A stretch of DNA of 64,000 nucleotides from Candidatus Latescibacterota bacterium (GCA_965219455.1 OZ244744.1:4928001-4992000); one strand, 5' to 3'; counted from the first letter of the stretch, positions 4,484 through 27,700 are shown. Program-made: numbers and translations. The notes: generated by a model not told the origin, from the sequence alone.

Positions 4484-5656
4484 TTGATGTTAAAAGTGGC
4501 AGATGCCGTGGTGATCGGCGGCGGGATTATGGGAGCCGGCATAGCCCATTTTCTGGCAAAGAAGGGGCTTGGCGCCGTCGTGCTTCTGGAAAAGCGGACG
4601 CTGGCCGCCGTGAGCACGGGGCATTCGGCTGCGGTGATCCGCACCTTTTACTCGAATGACCTGACCATCCAATTGTCCATGAAGGCGTTGGAGATGTTTG
4701 CGAATGGGGAGGAGGCGCTGGGGGGAGACGGTGACTTTCGCAATACAGGTTATATCTGTCTTCTGGGTGAGCAAACTGTCGCCGCGGGCCGGGCGGTGCT
4801 TGCGGCGGAGCAGCGGAACCACACTCGAGCCGTTGAGGTGGGTACGGATGAGATCAGGGAACTCGTCCCCGGTGTGAATACCGAAGGGATCGTCGCGGGC
4901 ATCTATGAACCCGCGTCGGGTTACGCGGACCCCGTCAAGACGGTCCGGAACCTGGTAACGCGGGCGAAAGACTGGGGACTGGTGTGTTACGAGGGCGTGG
5001 GAGCAACGAAGATTCGCCTCTCCGGCAACCGTGTGACCGGGGTGGAGACCGACGCGGGCGAAGTCCATACGGATATGGTGATCAACGCCGCAGGTCCCTG
5101 GGGCCGCGAGATGGGATTGTCCACGGGGTTGAATTATTCGGTGCGATGGAGCCGGGAGAGCGATCTGGTATTGCGATTGCCGGAGGGATTCGGGCGGTTT
5201 CCCGTGGTTTCCGATCCCAACCTGCGGGTCTATTTTCGTCCGGACGGCGACGACGGACTGCTGGCGGGCCTGAGTTTTCCCAAAGAGGTGGAGCCGATGG
5301 ACGTCGACGCGTACGATCCCGTCCTCGATGAACCTACTCGCCGGCGCATCGAGACGGGGACCTTTGAACGGGTGCCGGCGTTCAGGCAGGGCGAATTCGT
5401 AAAGGGCTGGGCGTCGGTCTATACGATTACGGACGACTGGCATCCCCTGGTCGGATCCGAGCCGGGGCTGGAGGGTTACCATGCGTTTTTCGGCGGGAGT
5501 GGGCACGGGTTCAAGCTGGGACCGCCCATTGCCGATTCGCTGAGCGACGTGATCCTCGGCCGGACGCCGGCGTTTGATCTGCATCCGTTCCGCCCCAGCC
5601 GGTTTCTGGAGGGGGAACAGTTCTCGTCCGCATGGGGGGGAGGGAATAGGGGGTGA
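4484..5656 (+). CDS. FAD-dependent oxidoreductase (DAO/sarcosine oxidase beta family)
   Basis: VIGGGIMG dinucleotide-binding motif, NAAGPW, GGSGHGFKLGP. Confidence 0.9.
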   Translation: MMLKVADAVVIGGGIMGAGIAHFLAKKGLGAVVLLEKRTLAAVSTGHSAAVIRTFYSNDLTIQLSMKALEMFANGEEALGGDGDFRNTGYICLLGEQTVAAGRAVLAAEQRNHTRAVEVGTDEIRELVPGVNTEGIVAGIYEPASGYADPVKTVRNLVTRAKDWGLVCYEGVGATKIRLSGNRVTGVETDAGEVHTDMVINAAGPWGREMGLSTGLNYSVRWSRESDLVLRLPEGFGRFPVVSDPNLRVYFRPDGDDGLLAGLSFPKEVEPMDVDAYDPVLDEPTRRRIETGTFERVPAFRQGEFVKGWASVYTITDDWHPLVGSEPGLEGYHAFFGGSGHGFKLGPPIADSLSDVILGRTPAFDLHPFRPSRFLEGEQFSSAWGGGNRG

Positions 5657-5750
5657 GGTCATATTCGAGGTGACCGAAGCGATCGAAGGCGGCGCCCCAG
5701 GGGTGATTCGCCTTCATCTCGTTAGAGAAGAGGCCAACCAGGTGTTTTGA
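5653..5750 (+). pseudogene. HicB-like antitoxin remnant with internal deletion
   Basis: IFEVTEAIEGG joined to VIRLHLVREE; deletion across the 9-bp repeat cgaaggcgg relative to the copy at 13735. Confidence 0.75.
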
Positions 5751-5756
5751 TCACCC

Positions 5757-5784
5757 GTAGGGGCGACCGGCCGGTCGCCCCTAC
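5757..5784. repeat. REP palindrome GTAGGGGCGACCGGCCGGTCGCCCCTAC (copy 1 of 7)
   Basis: Perfect 28-bp palindrome starting with GTAG, 11 bp upstream of the hsdM start. Confidence 0.9.
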
Positions 5785-5795
5785 AAGGAATCCCG

Positions 5796-6210
5796 ATGAC
5801 AAGCAACGCCAACCTTAACTGGATCGCAAACTACATATGGGGAATCGCAGACGACGTGCTGCGCGATCTGTACGGGCAAGGTGCAGTTGATCGACGCCAC
5901 AGCCTGGCACCGGCCGCTACGCAAGAACCTGGGCAAGAAGAACTGCGAGCTCGGCGAAGAGGACATTCAGCGCATCTGCGACACCTTCCTCGCCTTTGAG
6001 GTGAGCGAGCAGAGCAAGATCTTCGACAATGACGCCTTTGGCTACTGGAAGGCGACTGTCGATCGGCCGCTGCGGCTCAATGGGATTGACCCCAATCGCG
6101 CCTACAAGGCCGCCGAGATCAAAAAGATGAAGGAGAGTTGCGGACGCAGCGAAACCGCGCCCGCCCGTCATCAGGAAGATCCACAGAAGAGGTACGGAGG
6201 CCGACCCCAT
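5796..6210 (+). pseudogene. hsdM: Type I RM methyltransferase remnant
   Basis: MTSNANLNWIANYIWGIADDVLRDLY joined to GKVQLIDAT...; about 1.24 kb missing versus 13988-16432, including NPPY; frameshifted and truncated. Confidence 0.92.
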
Positions 6211-6320
6211 GCTGGAAGCATTGGCTGCGCGGATACGCAAATCGACGCAGGACAGGCCAACAGATCGTCGCGACGGCTGAGCCGAAGGGAAACTAAAGCG
6301 CAAGGGCGAGCGATGCCCTG
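6202..6320 (+). repeat. About 120-bp repeat: end of a small antitoxin-like gene plus trailer; also at 7102-7221 and 16945-17063
   Basis: gacccc..gctggaagcattggctgcgcggatacgcaaatcgacgcaggacagg...gaagggaaactaaagcgcaagggcgagcgatgccctg occurs three times. Confidence 0.9.
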
Positions 6321-6339
6321 CATATCGCTGCGGCGACCG

Positions 6340-6490
6340 TGGCCGGGGTCGATGTTTTGGCAAGGCGGTATGCCAGCGCAATGACTACGAACACGTCATC
6401 CGGAATGAATCCGCGCTGGACCGGATTCGGCAATACATCGCGGATAACCCGGCCAGGTGGTCGAAAGACCCGGAGAATCCTGCCGCTAAG
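6340..6490 (+). pseudogene. REP-associated tyrosine transposase (RAYT) C-terminal fragment
   Basis: QRNDYEHVIRNESALDRIRQYIADNPARWSKDPENP, nearly the same as 17460-17580. Confidence 0.85.
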
Positions 6491-6519
6491 GGCGGCCAGG
6501 ACACACGGAGGATAAGTAG

Positions 6520-6732
6520 ATGAGACCGAGCGAGATCATCTTCGAGGTAACCGAAGCGGCTGAAGGCGGATACGACGCCAGAGCGCTCGGGCACAGCATC
6601 TTCACGCAGGGAGAAGACTGGAACGACCTCAAGGCGATGGTGCGAGACGCGGTGCTCTGTCATTTCGACGACGAGAACATGCCACGAGTGATTAGACTGC
6701 ATCTCGTCAGAGTCGAGGCCATCGCGGTATGA
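6520..6732 (+). CDS. HicB-like antitoxin (intact)
   Basis: EIIFEVTEAAEGGYDARALGHSIFTQGEDWNDLKAMVRDAV; GGAGG RBS; ATGA overlap with a hicA-like gene. Confidence 0.8.
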   Translation: MRPSEIIFEVTEAAEGGYDARALGHSIFTQGEDWNDLKAMVRDAVLCHFDDENMPRVIRLHLVRVEAIAV

Positions 6733-6934
6733 AACTGCCCCGCGACCTCGCAGGAAACGAGGTTTCCAGGCTGCTGACCCGTCACTATGGCTACCGCGTG
6801 ACGCGAACCAAAGGCAAGCACGTGACTATGAACTTGACAATCGACGGCAACCGGCACAGCGTGACCGTACCGAGGCCGTAGCGGAGTTTCTTGGTCTGTC
6901 CAAACGCGAAGTACGAGAAACTCTTTTTGGTTGA
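6729..6934 (+). pseudogene. HicA-like toxin with internal deletion/frameshift
   Basis: MKLPRDLAGNEVSRLL...YGYRVTRTKGKH...HSVTVP then stop at 6881; C-terminal AVAEFLGLS..EVRETLFG* is out of frame. Confidence 0.75.
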
Positions 6935-6938
6935 CTCC

Positions 6939-6985
6939 ATGATCCCCGGCCTGAAGCCTTATCCCGCAAAGAACGACTCTGGCGC
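6939..6985 (+). pseudogene. hsdS 5' head remnant
   Basis: MIPGLKPYPAKNDSG matches the hsdS start (LRPYQGMKDSG at 20461; PYPAYKDSG near 8315). Confidence 0.7.
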
Positions 6986-6994
6986 ATCAGGGCC

Positions 6995-7181
6995 TGCAAC
7001 GAGGTCAATTGTCATAATGGACGCCCGCGCCCGCATTACCGCCGAAACCGCCGACATGACCATTGAGGAACAGGCAGAGTGGTTCAATTCCAGGCGGTAT
7101 TCCGACCCCGCGCTGGAAGCATTGGCTGCGCGGATACGCAAATCGACGCAGGACAGGCCAACAGATCGTCGCGACGGCTGA
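6995..7181 (+). pseudogene. Deleted PIN-tail/antitoxin module, homologous to 16740-17024
   Basis: caacgaggtcaat..taatgga joined to gcccgcgcccgcattaccgccgaaacc. Confidence 0.75.
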
Positions 7182-7290
7182 GCCGAAGGGAAACTAAAGC
7201 GCAAGGGCGAGCGATGCCCTGACCCAGGTTCTTCTTTGCTGTCGGCGAAGAACAAGAGGGCCCCGTGACGGGCGCCGAACTCCGGAGGAG

Positions 7291-7620
7291 ATGGAAATGA
7301 CAACGGAAACCCTGAATCAACATATTGAGATCACTCCGGGCATTTCAGGCGGCAAACCGCGCATTGCCGGTCGTCGAATTACCGTGGAGAATATCGTCAT
7401 CTGGCACGAACGCCTGGGCAAGAGCGCCGACGAAATCGCCAGTGATTACGACATTTCCCTGGCGGATGTGTACGCGGCACTGGCTTACTATTTCGATCAT
7501 CAGAATGAGATTGACCACTCGCTTGAGGAGAGTCGAGCATTTGTAGATTCCTTACGTCAGAAGTTTTCTTCGAAGATTTCCCAAAAGATTCAAGACCCGA
7601 CCCAACATGGCAACGATTAA
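7291..7620 (+). CDS. DUF433-family antitoxin
   Basis: IEITPGISGGKPRIAGRRITV...EIASDY.ISLADVYAALAYY. Confidence 0.9.
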   Translation: MEMTTETLNQHIEITPGISGGKPRIAGRRITVENIVIWHERLGKSADEIASDYDISLADVYAALAYYFDHQNEIDHSLEESRAFVDSLRQKFSSKISQKIQDPTQHGND

Positions 7621-7936
7621 GTTTTTAACCGATGAGAATGTCTCCAGAGCAGTTGTAATGGGACTACGTCGGAGAGGCGTGGACGTACTGACTGTTGCCG
7701 AAGCCGGGGACCTTGGAGCGTCTGACGAGGTAATTCTTGGAATTGCCCGGGAAACAGAACGAGTCATCTTCACGCAGGATGATGACTTTCTCCGTCTTGC
7801 AGCAACTGTTTCTGACCACCGAGGTATTGTTTACACGTCTCAAGAAAACACGGTTGGTGAGATTATTCGTGGCTTGATGTTGGTCTATCAGGTCTTAGCA
7901 GCAGAAGAGATGGTTGGACATGTTGAATACCTGTAG
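7607..7936 (+). CDS. DUF5615 (Mut7-C/PIN-like) toxin
   Basis: FLTDENV...LRRRGVDV...GASDEVIL...RVIFTQDDDFL; overlaps the DUF433 gene. Confidence 0.9.
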   Translation: MATIKFLTDENVSRAVVMGLRRRGVDVLTVAEAGDLGASDEVILGIARETERVIFTQDDDFLRLAATVSDHRGIVYTSQENTVGEIIRGLMLVYQVLAAEEMVGHVEYL

Positions 7937-7990
7937 AATACAAGGAAGTCATGGATAATTCAGCCCCATTGGTTGCCGACGGCGCGCGGG

Positions 7991-8171
7991 CCTGCCCTCT
8001 GCCGCTGACGCCTGGTACCAGTCGGACAGCGTGAGAATCGGCTACGAGATCAGCTTCACCCGGTACTTCTACAAGCCCCAGCCGATGCGGACTCTGAAGG
8101 AGGTCCGAGCTGTCATTCTTGCGCTGGAGAAAGAAAAAGAAGGGTTGTTGGCGGAGATTATCGTGCTATGA
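7991..8171 (+). pseudogene. hsdM 3' tail A
   Basis: DAWYQSDSVRIGYEISFTRYFYKPQPMRTLKEVRAVILALEKEKEGLLAEII*, homologous to 15775-15943. Confidence 0.9.
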
Positions 8172-9050
8172 CATCAGACGTACTCGACCACGCCGATCGG
8201 CGCATCCGGCGCTACATCCGCGCCAGGCAGAAGCTGATTGCGCTGTTGGAGGAGCAGAAGCAGGCCATCATCCACCAGGCCGTCACGGGACAGATCGACG
8301 TCCGAACAGGCCGGCCCTACCCGGCCTACAAGGACTCCGGTGTGGAGTGGCTGGGGGAAGTACCGGAGCATTGGCAGATCGCCGCTTTGCACCACAGATA
8401 TTCGCAGTGTCTTGGTAAAATGCTCGACTCCAAACGAATCACCGGCAACTACTCGCTTCCGTATCTGCGAAATGTTGACGTTCAGTGGGATCAGATCAAC
8501 ACTAAAGACCTTCCAACTATGGACATTGCGCCCGACGAGTATGAGCGCTACACCGTTCAACATGGTGACTTGCTGGTATGCGAAGGAGGAGAGATAGGAC
8601 GCTGCGCGCTTTGGTCAGGAGGACTACCCAGATGCGGATTTCAAAAAGCGCTGCACCGTCTCCGGCCACGGAATGCCCGTCAGGATATGCCACGCTTTAT
8701 GTACTATGCCCTTCGTGCCGCCGCGAAAGCCGACGCTTTTAATGATGGACATCTGAGTACTATCGCTCATTTGACTGGTGAAAAGCTGAGAGTACACCAC
8801 TTTCCATCCCGCCAGTAGCGGAGCAAGAGTTGTTAGTGCGTTTTCTTGATGGCGTTGTTGAGTAGATTGACCATACGGTTTCTCGCGTTCACCGCCAAAT
8901 CGACCTCCTCAACGAATGGCGCACCCGCCTGATCGCGGATGTCGTCACCGGCAAGCTAGATGTGCGCGAGGCGGCGGATGAACTGCCTGAGGACGACGTC
9001 CAGGACGATGCCGACGAATCGGAAGCAGAGTACACAAGCGAGCATCCAAC
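8168..9050 (+). pseudogene. hsdS: Half hsdS: central conserved region, one TRD, C-terminal conserved region
   Basis: LDHADRRIRRYIRARQKLIALLEEQKQAIIHQAVTG...KDSGVEWLG; frameshift near 8808, in-frame TAG near 8863, then RTRLIADVVTGKLDVRE. Confidence 0.9.
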
Positions 9051-9053
9051 GAT

Positions 9054-9081
9054 GTAGGGGCGACCCGCCGGTCGCCCCTAC
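9054..9081. repeat. REP palindrome (one mismatch)
   Basis: GTAGGGGCGACCCGCCGGTCGCCCCTAC immediately after the hsdS remnant. Confidence 0.9.
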
Positions 9082-9160
9082 CGGACCTCCCTCGCCGCCG
9101 CAGGTGTTGCCCATCATAGATGCCTATATTGTGCCACACAAAAACTGTGAAGCTGTGACT

Positions 9161-9523
9161 ATGAGAAATATTACCGTATCCGTCGACGAGCAGACACACC
9201 GGCTCGCACGTATCCGTGCGGCGGAGATGGACACATCGGTATCGGCCCTGGTGCGCGACTACCTGAGAGATCTGGCAGCCGAGCCGAATGCGGGGGGCGA
9301 AGCCAGCGCCGAGTCTAGCGAAACCATCTATCAGCGTCGGTGCAGGCTGCTGCGGGAAGTGCTCGCAGACTTCGATAGGCAGGGTATTGGGCTGCGGATG
9401 TCCGATAACCTGCCCAGGGAGGCGTTGTACGACCGCGTCGCTGCAAGGGCCGAGGCTGTCGCCGAGCGCGAGCGGCAGCGCAACATCTCTGAAGCACTCA
9501 GAGTCTCGCCATGCGATTCGTAG
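9161..9523 (+). CDS. RHH-type antitoxin (VapB-like), copy 1
   Basis: MRNITVSVDEQTHRLARIRAAEMDTSVSALVRDYL...REALYDR; overlaps the PIN gene. Confidence 0.85.
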   Translation: MRNITVSVDEQTHRLARIRAAEMDTSVSALVRDYLRDLAAEPNAGGEASAESSETIYQRRCRLLREVLADFDRQGIGLRMSDNLPREALYDRVAARAEAVAERERQRNISEALRVSPCDS

Positions 9524-9936
9524 ATACCAATGTCCTGCTGTATGCTGTCAGCGAGGTCTCGGAGGAGGCCGACAAGCGAGCGCGGGCGCTGGAAGTCCTG
9601 ACGGAACCCGACCTCGCCGCGTCAGTTCAGGTGCTGCAGGAGTTCTATTACCAGGCCACCCGGCCGACACGGATCCGCAGTCTTTCCGGCAATCGAGCTT
9701 TGCAATTCCTGGAGCCGATTCTGCTGTTCCGGATTCAGACCATGACGATGGACGTTTTTCTCGAGGCCATCGCCATCAGCCATCGTTTCCGGCTGTCCTA
9801 TTGGGACGGCGCAATTCTCGCCGCGGCCCGCGCCCTGGGTTGCGATGCCGTGTATTCCGAAAATATGAGTACGGAACAGGACTACGATGGCCTCCGGGTC
9901 ATAAACCCGTTCACGGACCAGCAGGCTTCACGGTGA
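9511..9936 (+). CDS. PIN-domain toxin (VapC-like), copy 1
   Basis: FVDTNVLLYA...QVLQEFY...LSYWDGAILAAA...YSEN. Confidence 0.92.
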   Translation: MRFVDTNVLLYAVSEVSEEADKRARALEVLTEPDLAASVQVLQEFYYQATRPTRIRSLSGNRALQFLEPILLFRIQTMTMDVFLEAIAISHRFRLSYWDGAILAAARALGCDAVYSENMSTEQDYDGLRVINPFTDQQASR

Positions 9937-9962
9937 ACGCCGACACTTCCGAACGCCTTTAA
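9933..9962 (+). pseudogene. hsdR 5' head remnant coupled to the PIN stop
   Basis: GTGA overlap; reads (M)NADTSERL*, like the hsdR start MTTTDTTERGL. Confidence 0.55.
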
Positions 9963-10025
9963 CATGGTAATTGTGACACGAAGAAGATTCACTAAGTTCA
10001 TAATTTATACGAGGTGTTGTGCCAG

Positions 10026-10451
10026 ATGAGCCACTCGACTCCACACTGGAGGTACAGATTCTCCAACTACAAGCGGGCCTTTACGCTGCTGCGGGAGGCG
10101 ATAGAGACGATGAGTGAGTCCGGACTGAGCCAACTTGAAAAGGAAGGAACCATCCAGAGGTTCGAATACACGATGGAACTTGCGTGGAATGTCATGAAAG
10201 ACTATTTGGAGCACGAGGGCGTCGTCTTTGACCAAACCACCCCGAGGAACGTCATCAGAAAGGCCTTCGAGACCAACCTAACCAGGCACGGGAGGGTATG
10301 GATGGACGCACTCGATGCTCGAAACAAGATGTCCCACACCTACAATTTCCAGCAATTTGAAGAGGTAATAGAGAATATCCGCAGCCGATATCTTGCCGCT
10401 ATGGAAGACCTTCACCTGGTTCTTTTGGAGAAGGAGGCGGACACTGACTGA
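10026..10451 (+). CDS. HEPN / nucleotidyltransferase substrate-binding protein (HI0074 family), copy 1
   Basis: IQRFEYTMELAW..MK, RNKMSHTY (Rx4H). Confidence 0.9.
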   Translation: MSHSTPHWRYRFSNYKRAFTLLREAIETMSESGLSQLEKEGTIQRFEYTMELAWNVMKDYLEHEGVVFDQTTPRNVIRKAFETNLTRHGRVWMDALDARNKMSHTYNFQQFEEVIENIRSRYLAAMEDLHLVLLEKEADTD

Positions 10452-10785
10452 CCACGGACTTTTCGATGAGGAGCTCGAGACGATTCGGGCCGTTTTGGCC
10501 AACTTCGCCGATGAGATCACACAGGTTGACCTGTTCGGATCAAGGGCCACGGGAAACTACCGAGGGAATTCCGATGTTGATCTTGTAGTTCACGGAGATG
10601 TCAAGGATACCACCATCGACAGACTGTGGACTTTGTTCAACGAGAGCAATCTGCCCTTCTCGGTTGATGTTGCCAGCTATGAAAGCATGACACATCGCCC
10701 CCTGAAGGAGCATGTCGACGCTGTTGGGCAATGCCTGTTTTCGGCTCAGGAGATCCGGAAAGGCAAGAAAACGCGGGGCACATAG
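10444..10785 (+). CDS. Minimal nucleotidyltransferase (MNT), copy 1
   Basis: LFGSRATGNYRGNSDVDL; AAGGAGG RBS, but the start is CTG here versus TTG in copy 2. Confidence 0.85.
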   Translation: MTDHGLFDEELETIRAVLANFADEITQVDLFGSRATGNYRGNSDVDLVVHGDVKDTTIDRLWTLFNESNLPFSVDVASYESMTHRPLKEHVDAVGQCLFSAQEIRKGKKTRGT

Positions 10786-10902
10786 ACGCACCAAAGCGCG
10801 TTCCAGTTACCCTCTTTGGTGCCGATGACTCATGGTTTCCGAGTGCTTGAGATCGGGTATTGACGCAGTCCTGAAGAGTGCCTTCGGCAGGATTGAAGTT
10901 GA

Positions 10903-11475
10903 ATGACCACCACAGACACCACCGAACGCGGGCTTGAACGCCTGATTTGCACCGCCCTGACGGGCCAGGACGGTCCCGCGCGGCGCGGTTTCCTGACCCG
11001 GCTCCAGGGCGAAGTCAGCAAACGCGGAACCATCGACGTACTGCGCAACGGGATCAAGCACCAGGCAATGCAAAAGATCATGCTGGCGGACGAGGATGCC
11101 GAGATCGATCCGGTACCCACGGCCGGCGGGGAGCATCACCCTGAACCGGAATTGGATCGGCTCTCCAACATACTCCGAGTCTTCAACGAATACTTTGGTG
11201 ACATTGAATGGGAAGATGAAGACCGCGTGCGGCAACTCATCATAGAGACGATTCCGGCCCGCGTCGCCGCCGATACAGCGTTCCGGAACGCACGGGAGAA
11301 CTCCGACCGGCAGAATGCCCGGATCGAGCACGACAAGGCGCTTGTGCGGGTGATGACCGGAGTGATGCGTGACGACACCGAACTGTTCAAACTGTACATG
11401 GATAACCCGGGCCTCAATCGCTGGATGGCCGATACCGTGTTCAGCCTTGCCTACGAGCCGACTGTCGCGCCTTAA
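10903..11475 (+). pseudogene. hsdR: Mini-HsdR (190 aa) made by two in-frame deletions
   Basis: N-terminal 22 aa, then GPARRGFL..GIKH, then the C-terminal domain QAMQ...LAYEP; nuclease and helicase motifs absent versus 24690-27700. Confidence 0.9.
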
Positions 11476-11759
11476 CTCACGACTGCGTGAACCGAGGCAA
11501 CGACTCGGTGACGTCGGGCGTTAAAGATATCGGAACGTAGAAGTAGTCATTTCCTGTCGATTATTGGAAGTTAAGACCACGTATCGTGCCGAGATACCCC
11601 TTTCGTTCGACCATTCTTAGCTGTGTTCTTCTTGCACTTCGACTTTGGAGCAAGGAACCGATACGGACGTTGATCCCGCTGTCGCAGAAATCGTGAAATG
11701 GTTGTAAGTGGCCAAAACTTCCGAGAATGCGTATAGTATGTAAAACGTAGGGGATTTCA

Positions 11760-11978
11760 ATGCACAGGTTAACAAAGAAGGAACGTCGAGCATACATCCA
11801 TAGACGATGCTATGAACTAGCACGGACCGGGAATTTTACTAAATGGATTGAGATTGAGCTTCATCTTCGTATTGAAGAAGATTTGCCCGAAGCACGTCAA
11901 GAACTTGATAAGCCATACCTACGAAAGCAACTTGACGAGATTTGTGAGGAACACAGGAAAAAGGATCAGGATAAATGA
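11760..11978 (+). CDS. Small hypothetical helical protein
   Basis: 72-aa ORF in an AT-rich segment (RCYELARTGNFTKWIEIE). Confidence 0.55.
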   Translation: MHRLTKKERRAYIHRRCYELARTGNFTKWIEIELHLRIEEDLPEARQELDKPYLRKQLDEICEEHRKKDQDK

Positions 11979-12113
11979 CCAATTCACATTAGCAAACTGC
12001 CCAGGGTGACAAACCTTTATAAGCCAACAATAAACCACCTGCCTTATATTCTGTATCAGTTCTCCAGATGCCTCCCTCGGTAAGGCTGGAATCTGTACAG
12101 GCGGATAACGTCA

Positions 12114-12568
12114 ATGCCCTTGACTGATGTTGAATTTGCTTCCATCCTGAACGACAATACTAAGCGAATCGCAGATGACGTTATCTGGACCGAGGACGAG
12201 GATCACTCCCCGGCGTTGGAATTCCGCGTAGACGTCACGTCGGAGAGTGGTTGGCCGTTGTTTGTAAAGGGACGTTTTAACTCGGCTGCTCGAACGTTAA
12301 ATTATGCGCTCATTTTGACGACGGAAGGCCGCATATATGGTCTCGACCTTGGAAAGGATCATCACAATCCACAGTGTGATCAGGTCAGGAAAAATACAAG
12401 CATACGTGGTCAGAACGTTACAGCGATAAAGAAGCATATGTGCCCGACGACATAGATGCACCTCTTTTGGATCCGGTGTCAGTTTGGACAGAGTTCTGCG
12501 TTGAAGCAGGCATTCAACATGATGGCATAATGAATGAGCCGCCCGCTATTCAGGTGGAGCTTTGTAAT
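12114..12568 (+). pseudogene. DUF6978-like protein with apparent 1-nt deletions
   Basis: RIYGLDLGKDHHNP..., then shifts frame near the A5 at about 12390 to KHTWSERYSDKEAYVPDDI; a TAATG junction with the next gene needs one more base. Confidence 0.6.
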
Positions 12569-20210: not shown

Positions 20211-20244
20211 CGGCCGCTGACTCAGCACACAGTCGAAGGATTGT

Positions 20245-20400
20245 TTGAGGGAATCGACTGAAATCAGTTTGGAAGTAGCGGAAGCGTGGGAGGGCGGTTA
20301 CGACGTCAGCGAGCGCCGACAGGGAATCTTCACGCTGATAGACGCCCAGAACGACCTGCGGGCCAAAGGTGTGAGACGCGGTACTCTGCCCACTTCGACG
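20245..20400 (+). pseudogene. Degenerate HicB-like remnant upstream of hsdS
   Basis: TEISLEVAEAWEGGYDV...GIFT. Confidence 0.6.
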
Positions 20401-20460
20401 ACACCATCCCGCAGTCCAAGTTGGTTGATTCCTTTTTGTCCACGATGAGATTGTCTTGGT

Positions 20461-21789
20461 ATGAATTCATATATCGCTGGTGAATTAAGGCCTTATCAGG
20501 GAATGAAGGACTCAGGAGTAAAGTGGCTGGGCAAAATCCCTTCGCATTGGAAAGTATTACCTAACCGTACACTCTTTGAGGAGGTTAAGGAACGCGATCA
20601 CCCTGAAGAACAAATGTTATCTGTAACGATCAAGCGTGGTGTCATACGGCAGAATGAGCTTTTGGATGAAAGCTCACAGAAGGACAGTTCGAACTTAGAT
20701 AAGTCGGCATACAAACAGGTCAAGCCTGGAGACATCGCATATAACAAAATGAGAGCATGGCAGGGTGCCATGGGAGTTTCCGAGTACCAAGGCATCGTCA
20801 GTCCTGCCTATGTTGTTGAGCGGCCTCGTAAGGGAGTTAACTCCAACTTTTCCCATTATTTGCTTCGCACACCTGGATTCGCGAAAGAGGCAGAACGGTG
20901 GTCATACGGGATTAATTCGGACATGTGGAGCCTACGGCCTGAACACTTCAAGATGATCTATACTTGCCTTCCTCCCCTCCAGGAACAAGCCGCCATCGTC
21001 CGTTTCCTCGACCACGCCGACCGGCGCATCCAGCGCTACATCCGCGCCAAGCAGAAGCTGATTGCGCTGCTGGAGGAGCAACGAAAGGCTGCTACACAAG
21101 AAGTGATTCAATCACGAAGTGTTACCTCAAATAAAATCGAGGTCGTTGCAGACTTGGTCGAAAGGCCGATTCACCGTGTGGCCACCGACACTTACACCCC
21201 GATTGGTCTTTACAATCGAGGACGTGGCATCTTTAAAAAGGAACCTCGAAACGGCGGTGAATTGGGAGATTCCGATTTCTTTTGGGTCGAAGAAGGTGAC
21301 TTGGTTCTCAGCGGGCAGTTCGCTTGGGAAGGTGCAATCGCTCTGGCAGGTGGCACTGAGTTTGGGTGCGTTGCAAGTCACCGCTATCCGATCCTACAGG
21401 GTAGGCACAATGTCTTGGATTCAGGATTCTTGCTGGCGTTTTTTCAGACGGATTGGGGCCAGCTTCTTCTTGATCACCACTCAAGAGGTGCGGCGGGAAG
21501 GAACAGGCCTCTCAATGCTAGAACACTTTTGAAAGAGAAGATACCGCTGCCACCTCTTCGCAATCAGATGGATATAGTTAAAATGCTGCGACGCGAAAAA
21601 ATGGTGCGCCAACAGGTCGAAGACTCCAAGAGACTGCTGAATGAATACCAGACCCGCCTAATTTCCGATGTCGTCACCGGCAAGCTCGATGTGCGCGAGG
21701 CGGCGGCTGAACTGCCGGAGGAAGACGTTCACCGCGACACCGAGAAATCGGCGGACGAGTACGCAATCGAAACGGACGTTACCGTATGA
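20461..21789 (+). CDS. hsdS: Type I RM specificity subunit with two TRDs
   Basis: KDSGVKWLGKIPSHW, LPPLQEQAAIVRFLD, RLISDVVTGKLDVRE. Confidence 0.93.
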   Translation: MNSYIAGELRPYQGMKDSGVKWLGKIPSHWKVLPNRTLFEEVKERDHPEEQMLSVTIKRGVIRQNELLDESSQKDSSNLDKSAYKQVKPGDIAYNKMRAWQGAMGVSEYQGIVSPAYVVERPRKGVNSNFSHYLLRTPGFAKEAERWSYGINSDMWSLRPEHFKMIYTCLPPLQEQAAIVRFLDHADRRIQRYIRAKQKLIALLEEQRKAATQEVIQSRSVTSNKIEVVADLVERPIHRVATDTYTPIGLYNRGRGIFKKEPRNGGELGDSDFFWVEEGDLVLSGQFAWEGAIALAGGTEFGCVASHRYPILQGRHNVLDSGFLLAFFQTDWGQLLLDHHSRGAAGRNRPLNARTLLKEKIPLPPLRNQMDIVKMLRREKMVRQQVEDSKRLLNEYQTRLISDVVTGKLDVREAAAELPEEDVHRDTEKSADEYAIETDVTV

Positions 21790-22688
21790 AGGACGGCGAC
21801 AACAACGAGCCTCCAGACGGCAAGGGAATAGAGATGCCGAAACAGGCCATCAAGTTCAAAGAGCCTTCTTGGATCCTGACTTGGTTAGATACGGCCTTGA
21901 AGAAGGAGAAAGAGAAATACAGAAAGTCTCCAATACTGCCAGATATGGTTCCGGGCCACGAATCTGCTCAAGGGTGGGGCTTTGTAGTTGTCGGATACTT
22001 CCTGGTTGAGGAAGCATTCAAGGCCCTTCTTCACGTTCGACAGAAAGGCGTCCCAAAGGAGCATGCGTTGTCGATTCTGTTCGGCCTTCTTGATCAAGAG
22101 GATAAGCTGACCCTCCGTGAATATTATAATGACTTCAGGGCAACTGTAGAAGGAGAACTAGGACGATTTCCATGTGACTCCATCGAGGACTTCCTTGAAA
22201 ACCTAGATGGAGATAAAGTCCAACGAGGGAGATTCATTGGCTCCTTCGATTGGCGGTACTTCCTTATCGAGGAAATGCAGAGCGGGAAAATGCCGTTGGT
22301 CAGCGTGGACTACCTGCATGAGGTCACGTATGGGCTTACGCGGATTGTGGAATGGGTCGTTTACGAGCGATTTTGTCCATCTCAACACACCCATAGCTGG
22401 CGATTGAGGTGGAAACGTCAAGAGAAGTATCGTGACTGGTACACCGTCAGGATGAATTCTGAAGAATGGAGTGATCTGGGAGATCGAATAGAAGAACTCT
22501 GGGGACCAGACTATTGTGGACGGTACGACTTGTGTATATTCCGAGGTGACAACAAAAAGTCTGTATTTGGAAAAGTCCCGCCGGCAAATCTGGATTTGCC
22601 GGTTATTGACAAGAGAAAAGAGATTAGGGTTTTCGATGTAGAAGAAGGATTTAGGAGTATCGGCGTAACGCGTCTGCGCCGTAGGTGA
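21786..22688 (+). CDS. Hypothetical protein coupled to hsdS, HEPN-like N-terminal region
   Basis: ATGA overlap; GYFLVEEAFKALL...KEHALSILF...WRY. Confidence 0.55.
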   Translation: MKDGDNNEPPDGKGIEMPKQAIKFKEPSWILTWLDTALKKEKEKYRKSPILPDMVPGHESAQGWGFVVVGYFLVEEAFKALLHVRQKGVPKEHALSILFGLLDQEDKLTLREYYNDFRATVEGELGRFPCDSIEDFLENLDGDKVQRGRFIGSFDWRYFLIEEMQSGKMPLVSVDYLHEVTYGLTRIVEWVVYERFCPSQHTHSWRLRWKRQEKYRDWYTVRMNSEEWSDLGDRIEELWGPDYCGRYDLCIFRGDNKKSVFGKVPPANLDLPVIDKRKEIRVFDVEEGFRSIGVTRLRRR

Positions 22689-22906
22689 CGGAAACCAAAC
22701 TGGTCATTTGGCATCCACGACGGTGCTTACGGACGCGTCCATCACTGCCGCTCGACGCCCCGGCAAGATCCCATAGGTCCGAGTATGTGTACCGTGGCGC
22801 AGGCACGACGCTTGCGGTAGCGTGATAAACCAGCCCTTGATGTAAAACTCTCAGAGTTCGCGCGCTGCCGCTGGAGTTGCCCGTCGGACGATTAAATCTT
22901 AAATTG

Positions 22907-22939
22907 TCACAGACAGAAACTGTGAGGCTGTGATTGTGA
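22907..22939 (+). promoter_or_regulatory. Putative operator of the RHH antitoxin
   Basis: TCACAG-N7-CTGTGA plus further (C/T)TGTGA repeats at the start codon; similar at 9135-9158. Confidence 0.5.
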
Positions 22940-23298
22940 GAAATATCACCGTATCGGTCGACGAGCAGACACACCGGCTCGCGCGTATCCGTGCGGCGGA
23001 GTTGGATACATCGGTATCGGCGCTGGTGCGGGACTTCCTGAGACATCTGACAGCGGAGCGGGATGCGGGGGGCGAAGCCAGTGCCGAGTCTATTGAATCC
23101 ATCTATCAGCGTCGGTGCAGGCTGCTGCGGGAAGTGCTCGCGGACTTCGATAGACAGGGTATTGGGTTGCGAATGTCCGACAACCTGCCCAGAGAGGCGT
23201 TGTACGACCGCGTCGCGGCAAGGGCCGAGGCTGTCGCCGAGCGCGAGCGGCAGCGCAGCATCTCTGAAGCACTCAGAGTCTCGCCATGCGATTCGTAG
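22936..23298 (+). CDS. RHH-type antitoxin, copy 2
   Basis: Near-identical to 9161-9523. Confidence 0.85.
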   Translation: MRNITVSVDEQTHRLARIRAAELDTSVSALVRDFLRHLTAERDAGGEASAESIESIYQRRCRLLREVLADFDRQGIGLRMSDNLPREALYDRVAARAEAVAERERQRSISEALRVSPCDS

Positions 23299-23711
23299 AT
23301 ACCAATGTCCTGCTGTACGCTGTCAGCGAGGTCCCGGAGGAGGCCGACAAGCGGGCGCGCGCGCTGGAAGTCCTGACAGAACCCGACCTCGCCGCGTCCG
23401 TTCAGGTGCTGCAGGAGTTCTATCACCAAACCACCCGGCCGACACGGATCCGCAGTCTTTCTGGCAATAGAGCTTTGCAATTCCTGGAGCCGATTCTGCT
23501 GTTCCGGATTCAGACCATGACGATTGACGTTTTTCTCGAGGCCATCGCCATCAGCCAGCGCTTTCGGCTGTCCTATTGGGACGCCGCAATTCTCGCCGCG
23601 GCCCACGCCCTGGGCTGCGATGCCGTGTATTCCGAAGATTTGAGTACAGACCAGGACTACGACGGCCTCCGGGTCATAAACCCGTTCACGGACGAGCAGG
23701 CTTCACGGTGA
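23286..23711 (+). CDS. PIN-domain toxin, copy 2
   Basis: FVDTNVLLYA...YWDAAILAAA...YSEDL. Confidence 0.92.
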   Translation: MRFVDTNVLLYAVSEVPEEADKRARALEVLTEPDLAASVQVLQEFYHQTTRPTRIRSLSGNRALQFLEPILLFRIQTMTIDVFLEAIAISQRFRLSYWDAAILAAAHALGCDAVYSEDLSTDQDYDGLRVINPFTDEQASR

Positions 23712-23800
23712 ACACCGACACCACTAAACGCCCCAAACAGAACGAACGTGACACGGGGAATCGTCACGAAATTCCTCATTTACACGAGGTTATGAGAAAT

Positions 23801-24226
23801 ATGAGCCACTCGACTCCACGCTGGAGGTACAGATTCTCCAACTACAAGCGTGCCTTTACGTTGCTGCGGGAAGCGATAGAGACGATGAGTGAGTCCGGAC
23901 TGAGCCAACTTGAAAAGGAAGGAACCATCCGGAGGTTCGAATACACGATGGAACTTGCGTGGAACGTCATGAAGGACTATTTGGAGCACGAGGGCGTCGT
24001 ATTTGAACAGACCACTCCGAGGAACGTCATCAGAAAGGCCTTCGAGACCAACCTGACCGAACACGGGAGGGTATGGATGGACGCACTCGATGCACGAAAC
24101 AAGATGTCCCATACCTACAATTTCGAGCAATTTGAAGAGGTAATAGAGAATATCCGCAGCCGATATCTTGCCGCAATGGAAGACCTTTACCTGGTTCTTT
24201 TGGAGAAGGAGGCGGACATTGACTGA
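23801..24226 (+). CDS. HEPN / nucleotidyltransferase substrate-binding protein, copy 2
   Basis: RFEYTMELAW, RNKMSHTY. Confidence 0.9.
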   Translation: MSHSTPRWRYRFSNYKRAFTLLREAIETMSESGLSQLEKEGTIRRFEYTMELAWNVMKDYLEHEGVVFEQTTPRNVIRKAFETNLTEHGRVWMDALDARNKMSHTYNFEQFEEVIENIRSRYLAAMEDLYLVLLEKEADID

Positions 24227-24560
24227 CCACGGACTTGTCGATGAGGAGCTCGAGACGATTCGGGCAGTTTTGGCCAACTTCGCCGATGAGATCAGACAGG
24301 TTGACCTGTTCGGATCGAGGGCCACGGGAAACTACCGCGGAAATTCCGACGTTGATCTTGTCGTTCACGGAGACGTCAGGGATGCCACGATCGACAGACT
24401 GTGGACTCTGTTCAACGAGAGCAATCTGCCCTTATCGGTTGACGTTGCCAGCTATGAAAGCATGACGTATCGCCCCCTGAAGGCGCATGTCGACGCTGTC
24501 CGGCAATGCCTGTTTTCGGCTCAGGACATCCGGCAGGGCAAGAAAACGCGGGCTACATAG
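24219..24560 (+). CDS. Minimal nucleotidyltransferase (MNT), copy 2
   Basis: TTG start after AAGGAGG; LFGSRATG...SDVDL. Confidence 0.88.
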   Translation: MTDHGLVDEELETIRAVLANFADEIRQVDLFGSRATGNYRGNSDVDLVVHGDVRDATIDRLWTLFNESNLPLSVDVASYESMTYRPLKAHVDAVRQCLFSAQDIRQGKKTRAT

Positions 24561-24689
24561 ACGCCCCAAAACGAGCTCCGGTTACCTTCTATAGTCGCCC
24601 ACTTGTGTGCCGATGATTCATGGCTTAGGAATGCGCGGGATCGGATATTGGCGCAGTCCTGAAGCGTGCCTTCGCAGGATTAAACTTGA

Positions 24690-27600
24690 ATGACCGTCTC
24701 CGACACCACTGAACGCGGGCTTGAACGCCTGATTTGCACCGCCTTGACAGGCCAGGGCTGCGAGGCCCCCGCTGCAGGCACCGTGGGAGAACCGCCCGTG
24801 GGTTATGGCGGTGTCGGCTGGAGTTGCGGCAATCCCCACGACTACGACCGTGAGTACTGCGTCGATCTGGTGCAACTGTCGGCATTCCTGCGCGACACCC
24901 AGCCCGAAGCCGCCGAGGCGTTGACGCTTTCCGAAGAAGGTCCGGTGCGACGTGCGTTTCTGACCCGGCTTCAGGGCGAAATCAGCAAGCGCGGCACCAT
25001 CGACGTGCTTCGCAACGGGATCAAGCACCAATCGTTCCACCTGGATCTGTTCTACGGCACCCCGTCGGCCGGCAACCCGCAGGCACAGGAGTTGTTCGAG
25101 CAGAACCGTTTTACCGTCACGCGGCAGCTTCGCTACAGCCGGGACGAGGCGCAGCGGGCGCTGGACATAGGTCTGTTCATCAATGGTCTGCCGGTGTTCA
25201 CGTTTGAGCTGAAAAACAGCCTCACCAAACAGACGGTGGACGATGCGGTCTGGCAGTACCGAAAGGACCGGAACCCTCGCGAAAAGTTGTTTGAATTCGG
25301 GCGATGCATGGTGCACTTCGCATTGGATGAGCGCGAGGTGCGTTTTTTTTTTGTACACACCTGAAGGGTAAGGCGTCCTGGTTTCTTCCCTTTAACCGCG
25401 GCTGGAACGACGGCGCGGGCAACCCGCCCAACCCGCACGGTCTTTCGGTCTCCTATCTCTGGCGTGAAGTACTCACGCGGGAGAGTCTCACCAACATCCT
25501 CGAGAATTACGCCCAGGTGGTGGCGTCGAAGGACGAAAAGAGCGGCAGGAAGCGGAGTACCCAAATCTGGCCGCGCTTCCATCAGCTCGACGTGGTGCGC
25601 CGTCTGCTGGCCGACGCGGGCGCCCGCGGTGCAGGTCAGCGCTATCTGATCCAGCATTCCGCAGGCAGCGGCAAGAGCAACTCCATCGCCTGGCTCGCCC
25701 ATCAACTGATCCGGCTGGAGAAGGACGATGCTCCCGTTTTCGACTCAATTATCGTCGTAACGGACAGGCTCATCCTGGACCGTCAGATCCGCGACACAAT
25801 CAAACAATACGCCCAGGTGGCGGCAACGGTAGGGCATGCCGACGGCTCGGGCGATCTGCGCCGGTTCATCGAAAGCGGCAAAAAGATTATCATTTCCACC
25901 GTCCAGAAGTTCCCTTTCATTCTGGACGAGATCGGCAACGAGCAGCGTGGGAGGCGCTTCGCCATCATCATCGACGAAGCCCACTCAAGCCAGGGGGGCC
26001 GCACCAGCGCAGCCATGGCGCAGGCGCTGTCGGAAGCCGGCGAAGAAGACGATCTGGATACCTTTGAGGACCGGATCAACCGCCTGATGGAGTCACGAAA
26101 GCTCCTTCCCAACGCCAGTTACTTCGCGTTTACCGCCACGCCCAAAAACAAGACGCTCGAGATCTTTGGCGCCGCGGACCCGCAGCCCGACGGTACGGTG
26201 AGGCATCTCGCCTTCCATAGCTACACGATGAAGCAGGCGGTCCAGGAAGGATTTATCCTCGACGTACTCGCACACTACACGCCGGTGGCGAGTTACTACA
26301 AGCTTGCGAAGACGGTTGAGGAGGATCCCGAATTCGACGTTCGGAAGGCGCAGAAGAAGCTGCGTCGTTTCGTGGAGGGCAGCGATCACGCGATTCGGCT
26401 CAAGGCCGAGATCATGGTCGACCATTTTCATGACCAGGTGCTGAAGCAGGGAAAGATCGGCGGCGCGGCGCGGGCGATGGTTGTCACAAATGGCATCGAG
26501 CGCGCGATCCAGTACTTCCATGCCATCCGCGACTATCTCAGGGAGCGCAAGAGCTCTTACGAGGCTCTGGTCGCCTTCTCCGGCGAGCACGACTACGGTG
26601 GCGCCAGGGTAAGCGAGGCGTCGCTGAACGGTCTGCCTTCCTCCCGGATCGCCAAGCGATTCCAGGAGGATCCATACCGGTTCCTGGTGTGCGCTGACAA
26701 GTTTCAAACCGGCTACGATGAGCCCCTGCTGCACACGATGTACGTGGACAAGACGCTGTCAGGAATAAGGGCCGTGCAGACTCTGTCTCGCCTCAACCGG
26801 GCGCATCCCAGGAAACACGACGTGTTCGTGCTCGACTTTTTCAACGACACCGACACCATTCGCGAAGCGTTCGCGGACTTTTACCGGGCGACGATCCTGG
26901 CCGACGAGACCGACCCCAACAAGCTGCACGACCTGCAGGCGGACCTGGACGGCGCGCAGGTCTATTCCGAGGTGCAGATCGACGAGTTTGTCCGGCGCTA
27001 CCTGGACGGCGAGGAACGCGACCGTCTCGATCCGATCCTGGACGCGTGCGTAGCGGTCTATCGGCGGGAGCTGGACGAAGACGGCCAGGTCGCGTTCAAA
27101 GGTAAGGCCAAAGCCTTCGTGCGAACCTACGCCTTTCTTTCTTCCATCCTACCATACAACGACCCCGCATGGGAAAAGCGTTCGATTTTCCTCAACTTCC
27201 TGGTCCCGAAGTTGCCGGCTCCCGAGGAAGAGGATCTCTCCAAAGGTGTCCTCGATGCGATCGATCTCGACAGCTACCGGGTTGAGAAGCAGGCAATGCA
27301 ACGGATCCTGTTGGCGGACGAGGATGCCGAGATCGATCCGGTACCGGCAGCCGGCGGAGGGCATTACCCGGAGCCGGAATTGGATCGACTCTCCAACATA
27401 CTTCGGGTCTTCAACGAGCATTTTGGCGACATTCAATGGGAAGATGAGGACCGCGTGCAGCAACTCATCTTAGAGACCATACCGGCCCGCGTCGCCGCCG
27501 ACACCGCGTTCCGAAATGCACGCGAAAACTCCGACCGCCAGAATGCCCGGATCGAGCACGACAAGGCGCTGGTTCGGGTGATGACTGGAGTGATGAAAGA

Positions 27601-27700
27601 CGACACCGAACTGTTCAAACTGTACATGGATAACCCGGGCTTCAAGCGCTGGATGGCCGATACCGTTTTCGATCTCGCCTACGAACCGGCAGGTACGTAA
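24690..27700 (+). pseudogene. hsdR: Type I restriction subunit HsdR, full length but frameshifted at a T10 tract (25343-25352)
   Basis: DIGLFINGLPVFTFELK nuclease motif in ORF1; HSAGSGKS, IIDEAHS, FTATP in ORF2; correcting the tract gives EVRF..CTHLKGKASWFLPFNRG into ORF2 with no other stop seen. Confidence 0.93.

Follow-up and report, generated by a model that had tools for sequence, protein, structure and literature searches.

Defence cargo and its turnover in a type I restriction-modification operon of Candidatus Latescibacterota

How do toxin-antitoxin (TA) and nuclease genes come to lie inside a type I restriction-modification (RM) operon? The embedding of defence genes in such operons is established and has been used for system discovery, but how the genes get there has not been worked out. 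The question is raised by positions 5491..27700 (with flanks, 4484..29233) of a 64,000-nt stretch of Candidatus Latescibacterota bacterium (GCA_965219455.1 OZ244744.1:4928001-4992000). We call the whole stretch the window and count positions from its first letter; the assembly that holds it is a single 5.84-Mb contig. The initial annotation saw here an undescribed, integron-like accretion system, in which an hsd operon stacks TA and nuclease cassettes. We find that the backbone of the locus is a horizontally spread type I RM operon, composed of hsdM fused to a PIN domain, a small partner predicted to bind this domain, hsdS, and hsdR. The cargo occupies three slots of the operon, is co-oriented with it, and is probably co-transcribed. 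The explanation we favour, and regard as fairly likely, is that of a defence island at a fixed hotspot whose cargo turns over by general recombination, and not by a site-specific system.

We compared the interval between the two flanking core genes, DAO and rhaA, in the window's own genome (G000) and in 14 other species of the genus, i.e., in 15 species. Genes were called using open reading frame (ORF) heuristics and assigned to families with Pfam, NCBIfam, and PADLOC profiles. Counts pooled over these related genomes are descriptive and non-independent, and we claim no significance for them.

A hotspot between two core genes and its occupation by two units

The two anchors are found on one contig in 14/14 other species:

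4484..5656, + strand: left anchor, FAD-dependent oxidoreductase (DAO; Pfam DAO E=7e-53), adjoining the island in 14/14 other species
27827..29233, - strand: right anchor, L-rhamnose isomerase rhaA (Pfam RhaA E=1e-176)

The interval between them measures ~100 bp in two species, 3.9 kb (only stubs) in one, 12-19 kb in 11, and 22.2 kb in the window. In the two empty sites (2/15 species), these ~100 bp include a terminator-like hairpin. Gene order differs between all 13 occupied islands, 12 of which keep the same hsd operon family as backbone. The locus thus has variable defence content between conserved core genes and empty sites in relatives, as expected of a hotspot. The idea that the hsd operon acts as a scaffold with varying cargo was borne out: the slots between hsdM and hsdS, between hsdS and hsdR, and after hsdR are filled differently in every one of the 13 islands, and the collected intervals show that gene order is not fixed among relatives. 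The nucleases and ATPases identified with Pfam and PADLOC include Mrr/PDC-S02, GmrSD/HEC-06-like, AbiU2-type HEPN, OLD/GajA-like AAA_15, AAA_13/PDC-S06, HNH, and HNH_5 proteins. Other cargo comprises a type II methylase with a GHKL ATPase and ThsB-like TIR proteins with an 8xMP membrane protein. The TA pairs are HicAB, two kinds of DUF433/DUF5615, RHH/PIN, and HEPN/MNT, to which one must add the PDC-M24 pair. In G001, an insertion sequence with DUF772/DDE transposase domains interrupts hsdS (locus L023, 9371-10708).

The operon family extends beyond the genus. A search with the PIN domain fused to HsdM gave 51 loci, 43 of them outside the layout of this genus. In 20 of these 43, the HsdM core, the HsdM end, the PIN domain, and the small partner occur in a row, followed by hsdS (except in L070) and by hsdR (except in L047 and L070). 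The fusion module is found in type I operons of several phyla (L030-L043, L047, L051, L052, L055, L076). Several loci of other phyla carry cargo in the same slots: GmrSD, AAA_15/21 with DUF3226, Phd/PIN, DUF5615, DUF1828, and Dcm with a GHKL ATPase.

In the window, positions 5759-11460 align piecewise with 13951-27688 at 70-97.5% identity (self-BLAST). This confirms the presence of two tandem, diverged versions of one hsdM-hsdS-hsdR locus, which we call unit A (5757-11475) and unit B (13949-27700). The implication that there are two hsd loci holds only in part, since all three hsd genes of unit A are gutted and hsdR of unit B is frameshifted. According to tblastn, unit A retains only residues 1-29, 440-551, and 593-652 of hsdM, fragments of hsdS, and residues 1-39, 111-147, and 885-1029 of hsdR. 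Unit B has, in order, hsdM, a 78-aa ORF, debris of a transposase gene described below, HNH, a 359-aa ORF, hsdS, a 300-aa ORF, RHH/PIN, HEPN/MNT, and hsdR. The features are the following:

5796..6211, + strand: unit A hsdM remnant, residues 1-29 joined to 440-551 (tblastn, blastn)
6520..6881, + strand: HicB-like ORF (6520-6732) and truncated HicA-like ORF (6729-6881; Pfam HicA E=4e-4)
6891..7181, + strand: unit A orphan of the small PIN-partner family, 'c5' (sequence match)
7291..7936, + strand: DUF433 / DUF5615 (PIN_10-like) pair, both intact, 109 aa each (Pfam E=5e-19, 3e-20)
7980..8159, + strand: displaced hsdM 3'-end remnant, residues 593-652 (tblastn), likewise after DUF433 modules in G004, G006, G009, G012, and G001
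8168..9042, + strand: unit A hsdS remnants (PADLOC Specificity_I E=7e-37 over half of the profile; tblastn)
9155..9936, + strand: unit A RHH antitoxin (9155-9523) and PIN toxin (9511-9936), intact (Pfam PIN E=7e-12), the 3' end of PIN overlapping an hsdR remnant, residues 1-39 (9840-9956)
10014..10785, + strand: unit A HEPN (NTase_sub_bind) / MNT pair, intact (Pfam E=5e-42, 1e-11)
10903..11475, + strand: unit A hsdR remnant, residues ~111-147 joined to 885-1029 (blastn, tblastn)
11760..13346, + strand: small conserved ORF (11760-11978), DUF6978 (12114-12455), and DUF1828 (12534-13346), the pair being PADLOC PDC-M24A/B (E=1.5e-37, 6e-104)
13572..13784, + strand: duplicated DAO 3' end and 36 nt downstream, left edge of unit B (87% identical to 5490-5692)
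13988..16432, + strand: unit B hsdM with in-frame PIN fusion (Pfam N6_Mtase E=1.5e-51, HsdM_N E=6e-20; PADLOC MTase_I E=1.5e-237)
16422..16658, + strand: small partner ORF c5, 78 aa, overlapping the hsdM-PIN stop; predicted PIN binder (complex prediction)
16694..17024, + strand: displaced PIN C-terminal remnant (16694-16813) and second c5 copy (16764-17024) (tblastn)
18328..20210, + strand: HNH endonuclease (18328-19155; Pfam HNH E=6e-10) and overlapping 359-aa ORF (19131-20210)
20461..21789, + strand: unit B hsdS (PADLOC Specificity_I E=1e-66, two matched stretches; Pfam Methylase_S E=4e-8)
21786..22688, + strand: 300-aa cargo ORF with a 4-nt overlap with the hsdS stop; ortholog in G003
22930..24560, + strand: unit B RHH (22930-23298) and PIN (23286-23711), hsdR remnant, residues 1-39 (23615-23731), HEPN (23789-24226) and MNT (24168-24560)
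24690..27700, + strand: unit B hsdR, split (24690-25364 and 25517-27700), domains HSDR_N, SWI2_SNF2, ResIII, and T1R_D3 present

Unit B thus has an HsdM with HsdM_N and N6_Mtase and an HsdS with two target-recognition domains, but no intact HsdR. The hsdR frame is broken at a run of ten T (25343-25352), where five relatives have five T; the gene is intact in G011 (1036 aa). Across the genus, hsdR is broken or lost in 4/13 occupied islands: frameshifted in G000 and G008, lost in G001 and G002. The T run might slip, rendering restriction phase-variable, or the difference with the relatives might stem from sequencing error. The HicB-like ORF, intact at 6520-6732, also has degraded copies in the leaders of unit B hsdM (13735-13917) and hsdS (20245-20448). 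The genome has three further hsdM-like loci (~3.283, ~2.733, and ~1.197 Mb), with 70-77% DNA identity over parts of the gene.

Most of the cargo named in the initial annotation was recovered with the three profile databases: DUF433/DUF5615, two RHH/PIN, two HEPN/MNT, HNH, and DUF6978/DUF1828. HicBA is there as a HicB-like ORF, but HicA is truncated (50 aa vs 82 aa in relatives). The labels PD-(D/E)xK-like for 19131-20210 and HEPN-like for 21786-22688 find no support in Pfam, NCBIfam, or PADLOC, which give no family for these two ORFs, for 11760-11978, or for the c5 ORFs. Two further observations of that annotation are correct: every ORF with a family match between the anchors is on the hsd (+) strand, and translational coupling is frequent, with start/stop overlaps of 4-14 nt at DUF433/DUF5615, RHH/PIN, hsdM and its next ORF, and hsdS and its next ORF. 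A scan of the region for promoters and terminators gave counts at chance level (9 vs 10.0 expected; 21 vs 18.2 expected). The window has no tRNA gene and, as initially noted, no match to Phage_integrase; the five PF00589 (Phage_integrase) matches of the genome are all outside it.

While all three hsd genes of unit A are gutted, its TA ORFs lack internal stops and have the same lengths as those of unit B. Comparisons of A with B show ratios of non-synonymous to synonymous substitution rates (dN/dS) of 0.22-0.26 for RHH/PIN and 0.20-0.22 for HEPN/MNT. The cargo of unit A is thus under purifying selection.

Unit B starts at the copy of the DAO 3' end (213 nt), after the DUF6978/DUF1828 pair. The block carrying this pair (11760..13346) recurs 3' of hsdR in G004 and 5' of hsdM in G009 and G001. 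Accordingly, the junction between the hsdR remnant and PDC-M24 is also found in G004, and in public contigs spanning 11311-12953. The junction from PDC-M24 through the DAO stub to hsdM is found in G009 and G001, and in public contigs covering 12926-13920, with 0-3 differing letters per contig. Since the two junctions exist independently, the window looks like a precursor of both layouts. The public contigs come from six runs of two studies that hold the stretch (at least 0.70 of the sampled words); they are short, and four of the runs were compared with the window. In three of these four runs, contigs at full local depth have 19 other letters in place of 143 nt (6876->7020), which points to a common population variant of unit A.

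Probable exchange of cassettes, repeats, and rival explanations

The cassettes were initially described as separated by duplicated hsd gene ends, and remnants and linkers derived from such ends do border the cargo. The stub of hsdR residues 1-39 lies 5' of HEPN/MNT in both units of the window and in G003 and G004; because it sits upstream of this cassette, HEPN/MNT lies inside the hsdR 5' end. The stub of hsdM residues 593-652 is 3' of DUF433 modules in six genomes, and PIN C-terminal stubs with extra copies of the small partner are 3' of hsdM-PIN in most genomes.

The identities between alleles are mosaic. HEPN/MNT of unit B is 98% identical to its counterparts in G003 and G007 vs 93% to that of unit A, and the 3' end of its hsdR is 96% identical to that of G011 vs 88% to that of A. 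Units A and B are therefore, by sequence identity, not each other's closest relatives. Synonymous divergence (dS) between A and B is also uneven, ~0.49 in the hsd remnants vs 0.13-0.20 in the cargo. The dN/dS values, 0.12-0.26 throughout, suggest that the hsd genes of unit A still worked while they diverged and that their deletion is recent. When unit B is compared with G003, identity is 94-100% over HEPN/MNT plus the hsdR stub, 85-91% over the hsdR body, and 50-62% over RHH/PIN; RHH/PIN alleles thus differ by ~45% amid an otherwise conserved context. HEPN/MNT (23600-24600) is 97-99% identical to that of G003 and G007, and the flanking hsdR and core genes are ~85-91% identical, which indicates a recent transfer of this cassette alone between species. 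Taken together, these identities point to cassette-scale exchange between lineages via conserved linkers.

To locate breakpoints, we compared the 13 islands in all ordered pairs, took the 624 ends of homology blocks (high-scoring segment pairs, minimum length 300 bp), and counted those within 40 bp of a given feature. Block ends were expected to cluster at hsd ends and at the palindromes described below. They are indeed not random, with 59 near an hsd gene end vs 17.5 expected (3.4x) and 64 near a palindrome vs 17.8 expected (3.6x). Yet ordinary cargo gene ends without a palindrome are enriched nearly as much (120 vs 42.2 expected, 2.8x). Because of the latter, the clustering is general to gene borders, with a small excess at palindromes and hsd ends.

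The palindrome, perfect over 28 nt and headed by GTAG on either strand, is a repetitive extragenic palindromic (REP) element. The REPs and the remains of the associated transposase are located as follows:

5757..5784, no strand: REP copy 1, ending 11 nt before the start of the unit A hsdM remnant
6359..6502, + strand: 3' fragment of the transposase in unit A, residues 134-181 (protein-level match)
9054..9081, no strand: REP copy 2, one mismatch in the core, after the unit A hsdS remnant
13949..13976, no strand: REP copy 3, ahead of unit B hsdM
17061..18221, + strand: transposase debris (NF047646 matches, tblastn)
~17124, 17364, 17608, no strand: REP copies 4-6, in the debris
18052-18079, no strand: REP copy 7, interrupting the N-half of the transposase

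The hairpin of copy 3 (-28 kcal/mol) ends 11 nt 5' of the hsdM ATG. With at most two mismatches there are 36 REPs in 5.84 Mb (32-36 copies), and 5491-27700 holds seven of them vs 0.14 expected, a density unmatched in the genome (no other 22-kb bin of 264 has seven copies). The REP occurs in 15/15 genomes of the genus, with 4-52 copies each, and in 0/8 genomes of another genus of the same order. The claim that REPs separate the cassettes is right in that the palindrome is real and far above chance. It fails at the TA-cassette junctions: two REPs of the window precede hsdM, one follows the hsdS remnant, four are in the debris, and none lies between adjacent TA cassettes. We also considered the REP as a defence-specific element, which was rejected because the five other clusters examined (L025-L029) lie beside an H+-PPase, sulfatases, a TPR protein, a sigma-54 activator, and HtrA-like proteases. 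Dependence of the REP population on the island was rejected as well, since the two empty-site species carry 24 and 19 copies. The palindrome is a generic low-copy genome repeat, not a high-copy REP. In G013 (core 9664) and G006 (core 10595), coordinates of the oriented islands, a REP lies in frame ~253 nt into hsdR and leaves the gene unbroken, and the proteins have 1014 vs 1001 aa (+13).

The ORFs that follow hsdM had been taken for small TA modules (16922-18101). Judging from profile and protein-level matches, they are probably pieces of a REP-associated tyrosine transposase (RAYT) that the initial annotation missed. In relatives, an ORF of ~195-203 aa between hsdM and hsdS carries a HUH motif and a conserved Tyr motif. 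It matches NCBIfam NF047646 (REP_Tyr_transpos) with E=2e-17 and 63 bits, below the cut-off of 80 bits, and Pfam Y1_Tnp with 25.5 bits (cut-off 23). REPs occur at the end of this ORF and, in frame, within it, and every full-length or near-full-length RAYT of the genus has one in frame (e.g., that of L011, 13210-13797, - strand). The window retains only fragments, corresponding to positions 7-64 and 102-131 of the NF047646 model: four 3'-half fragments at 17061-17631, each with a REP at its end, then a 3'-end remnant of an unfused-type hsdM at 17668-17757, and the N-half at 17769-18221, interrupted by REP copy 7. Hence, the locus lacks an integrase, as stated, but it does contain what is probably the gene of a mobile-element enzyme, now in pieces. 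The gene is uninterrupted in G011, G013, G014, and G006, has one TGA in G001, is partly masked in G007, is fragmented in five genomes (G000, G004, G002, G003, G008), and was not found in two of the 13 occupied islands (G009, G012). The association fits the definition of REP/RAYT pairs, with a GTAG-tagged palindrome in many extragenic copies that flanks, and here interrupts, the RAYT ORF; PMC3733652 defines GTAG-tagged REPs, describes RAYT genes flanked by REPs, and reports REPs inside genes.

Some RAYT-related sequences lie elsewhere. The unit of ~180 nt formed by the RAYT 3' part and a REP, tandem-multiplied in the islands, occurs once outside them (L027, 9799-9980; G000:C1, ~3.8948 Mb), which suggests that it moves as a small non-autonomous element. 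That cargo moves with it was rejected, because at L027 only the ~180-nt unit matches the islands in DNA and protein comparisons. A whole-genome scan with Pfam Y1_Tnp missed the RAYT pieces of the island and found only two distant paralogs at 1.91 Mb. Two RAYT-like paralogs (G000:C1, 954146-954631 and 3187823-3188404) have 43-49% identity to the island type; since the island REP is near neither, other REP families probably exist in the genome.

From the anatomy, the variability between species, the remnants, and the mosaic identities, all directly observed, we infer the following order of events and route of recombination. Variant alleles from related lineages would recombine through conserved hsd segments, short linkers, and the flanking core genes, giving swaps of single cassettes. 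An incoming allele would sometimes be added instead of replacing the resident one, producing the tandem state, and unit B would have come with its own DAO 3' end. An allele may be added by a single crossover of a circular copy, or by one homologous and one illegitimate end. Deletions would then prune the redundant hsd genes while TA cassettes persist, leaving hsd stubs at their borders and a net gain of cargo. The RAYT/REP pair would add local repeats and rearrangements, and would not be needed for the embedding of cargo.

Several points weigh against this scenario. No recombination event was seen directly, and the islands come from different species, so that the events are old and superimposed. 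No public contig spans from A to B in the four runs compared, whose contigs are short and do not bear out the continuity of the two units on one molecule. The role we infer for post-segregational (addictive) killing, by which the TA pairs would protect cassettes from deletion, goes beyond the observations. REPs and hsd ends may play a modest extra role in the breakpoints. Finally, across the genus the DAO-rhaA interval holds 45 of 351 REP copies vs 0.92 expected, a ~49-fold enrichment.

This enrichment counts in favour of a different explanation, in which a RAYT/REP-driven platform shuffles the cassettes: the HUH transposase would nick REP hairpins on single-stranded DNA and insert, excise, or shuffle cassettes, making the operon an integron-like accretion system. 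It would also account for a RAYT residing, uninterrupted in four species, in the slot between hsdM and hsdS, for the REPs placed 11 nt 5' of the start of hsdM in 8 of the 12 species that have this gene, 5' of the hsdS start in five, and after hsdS in seven, for the tandem multiplication of REP-to-REP units with the RAYT 3' half (periods of 240-450 nt), for the single such unit at L027, and for the 3.6x enrichment of breakpoints at REPs. The same breakpoints speak against it, because block ends are barely more enriched at REPs than at any cargo gene end. Moreover, the window has no REP between adjacent TA cassettes or between HEPN/MNT and hsdR, the outside copy shares only the RAYT-3'+REP unit with the islands, and the other REP clusters examined in the genome are beside housekeeping genes. 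Islands without RAYT and with few or no REPs (none in G008, one each in G009, G012, and G003) are equally cargo-rich. Of the 51 loci, six have a RAYT-like match, and five of these six show the island layout of this genus. The 43 loci outside this layout, 20 with the same operon and several with cargo, have a single match, which is weak and ~6 kb away. We thus consider the platform unlikely, and likewise the related proposal that REP-bounded segments in the island are, or were until recently, moved by the RAYT of the hsd operon. If true, a domesticated HUH transposase and REP hairpins would form an integrase-free cassette-shuffling device for a defence operon. With no integrase, no site per cassette, and REPs absent between TA cassettes, a dedicated integron-like machine is not supported.

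The tandem state could instead result from one ancient duplication of the whole island in this lineage, followed by differential decay without exchange between lineages. Wherever both units survive they run collinear, the window has two copies of the DAO 3' end, and the DAO stub of G009 and G001 fits the inheritance of an old tandem state. We nevertheless regard this history as rather unlikely, because A and B have diverged unevenly (in dS, hsd remnants vs cargo), segments of B are nearer to other species than to A, a tract of HEPN/MNT is 94-100% identical between species within flanks of 85-91%, and RHH/PIN alleles are highly dissimilar in a conserved context. Very unlikely, in our view, is an artefact that threaded the island alleles of two strains into one assembly path via the shared PDC-M24 region. 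The source does appear to be a mixed community, the runs show variants such as 6876->7020, no contig spans A to B, and low-depth joints from A to B were seen in public runs. These joints may come from related strains, and contig depths in the four runs are not comparable along the stretch. However, each junction of the window was seen independently, in G004, in G009 and G001, and in public contigs with few differing letters; sequences specific to A and to B are only ~3 kb apart; and the assembly is a single contig.

The HsdM-PIN fusion and its small partner

The module initially called an SWNF-type PIN toxin with its antitoxin turned out to be the C-terminal domain of HsdM itself (residues ~655-814), fused in frame, and the small partner ORF at 16422-16658 (15950-16658 in the window, partner included). 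The fusion is present in 9 of the 12 species of the genus that have hsdM. The PIN domain is carried by 178 protein clusters of 447-1425 aa; among the 120 clusters listed, nearly all have N6_Mtase and most also HsdM_N, and the few that are named are called only 'N-6 DNA methylase'.

The fused domain matches Pfam PIN/PIN_3 only with E=3e-4, below the cut-offs, and a PIN-profile search against the sequences of solved structures gave only chance-level matches (best E=0.022). Its fold was modelled with a predicted local distance difference test score (pLDDT) of 88.9, and the top Foldseek matches of the model are VapC toxins (probability 1.00, template modelling scores of 0.52-0.61). The acidic residues expected of a PIN fold are there, D16 and E55 being invariant and D104 at least 90% conserved. 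We thus describe the domain as VapC-like.

The partner ORF, of 65-86 aa across loci, overlaps hsdM-PIN and lies downstream of the toxin. Complex prediction for the PIN domain with c5 gave an ipSAE of 0.82 vs 0.00 for the best control, with a partner pLDDT of 71 and runs sharing at least 88% of contacts; for comparison, 116 of 157 solved complexes and 2 of 215 mismatched pairs attain the 0.82 mark. The predicted interface takes in PIN residues 16-18, 100-104, 106, and 122-123, and c5 is thus predicted to bind over the active-site residues. A search of protein clusters with c5 returned unnamed clusters only. If the prediction is right, HsdM-PIN and c5 could form an RM-tethered TA or abortive-infection module, and PrrC, which is embedded in the EcoprrI type I RM operon, is the analogue suggested for the latter role. 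We found no description of the HsdM-PIN fusion in the main texts of the literature searched.

Displaced copies of this module recall the orphan toxin-immunity modules found downstream of rhs/cdiA genes. They keep an upstream piece, the C-terminal domain, and the partner, as in G001 (hsdM residues 593-810 with c5) and in unit B (PIN stub with c5). Unlike the rhs/cdiA case, the PIN domain is not polymorphic: its mean column identity is 68% among 22 sequences from several phyla. We thus rejected the interpretation of the orphans as polymorphic toxins; given this conservation, they look like recombination debris and not like a toxin-swapping repertoire.

Relation to known systems and significance

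Integrons assemble arrays of co-oriented, promoterless cassettes with IntI, attI, and attC. The islands resemble them in stacking co-oriented cassettes in one transcription unit, with content that differs among relatives. They differ in that the window has neither a tyrosine integrase nor a site per cassette, and that the borders are stubs of scaffold genes.

Closer parallels exist for genes embedded in RM operons, and the claim of an undescribed system is not supported, as such embedding is already in print. A preprint (10.1101/2024.01.29.577857) describes defence genes embedded in type I RM operons ('guilt-by-embedding') with 96.7% co-orientation; in its accessible text, the words 'recombination', 'integron', and 'hotspot' are absent. 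As there, our cargo sits between hsd genes and shares their strand (here, every family-matched ORF is co-oriented), and it matches the PADLOC candidates PDC-M24, PDC-S02, PDC-S06, and HEC-06. What differs is that a single genus offers 13 allelic states and two empty sites, and that gene-end stubs, a tandem intermediate, and a cassette-scale mosaic show how embedding proceeds. In enteropathogenic Escherichia coli, DarTG2 lies between hsdS and hsdR, a position that PMC12255303 describes as a potential recombination hotspot. PMC5499597 reports the coupling of PIN TA genes to HsdM/HsdS, in arrangements that close species do not conserve.

The immigration control region of E. coli, the yjiA-yjiN hotspot, also has empty sites (PMC12707154). 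It shares with our locus conserved anchors, the occurrence of some empty sites, and a content that varies widely and abounds in type I RM, Mrr, GmrSD, and TA genes. Here, however, the anchors are DAO and rhaA, the phylum is another one, and a single hsd operon family is kept in 12/13 occupied sites, so that most variation is within the operon. Relative to known REP/RAYT (REPIN) systems, the GTAG-headed palindrome, its 4-52 copies per genome, and the flanking of RAYT by its own REPs are familiar. The differences are the position of RAYT inside a type I RM operon and on the operon strand, the REP in frame within the ORF, the decay of RAYT in five genomes and our failure to find it in two of the 13 occupied islands, and the low copy number of the REP. 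No report of a link between RAYT and RM was found in the main texts of the literature searched, including PMC5581495.

In summary, the locus is an informative variant of a known phenomenon, the presence of defence genes in type I RM operons at a chromosomal hotspot. The genus provides a natural series at one locus: two empty sites, 12 differently loaded single islands (one with stubs only), and one tandem intermediate, with its TA cargo intact and its redundant hsd genes in the course of deletion. The traces point to recombination via scaffold segments followed by duplication and pruning, which amounts to a testable ratchet for the gain of cargo. Two side findings may reach further: the RAYT/REP pair resident in a defence operon, and a fusion, widespread but unannotated, that joins HsdM to a VapC-like RNase and comes with a small predicted inhibitor.

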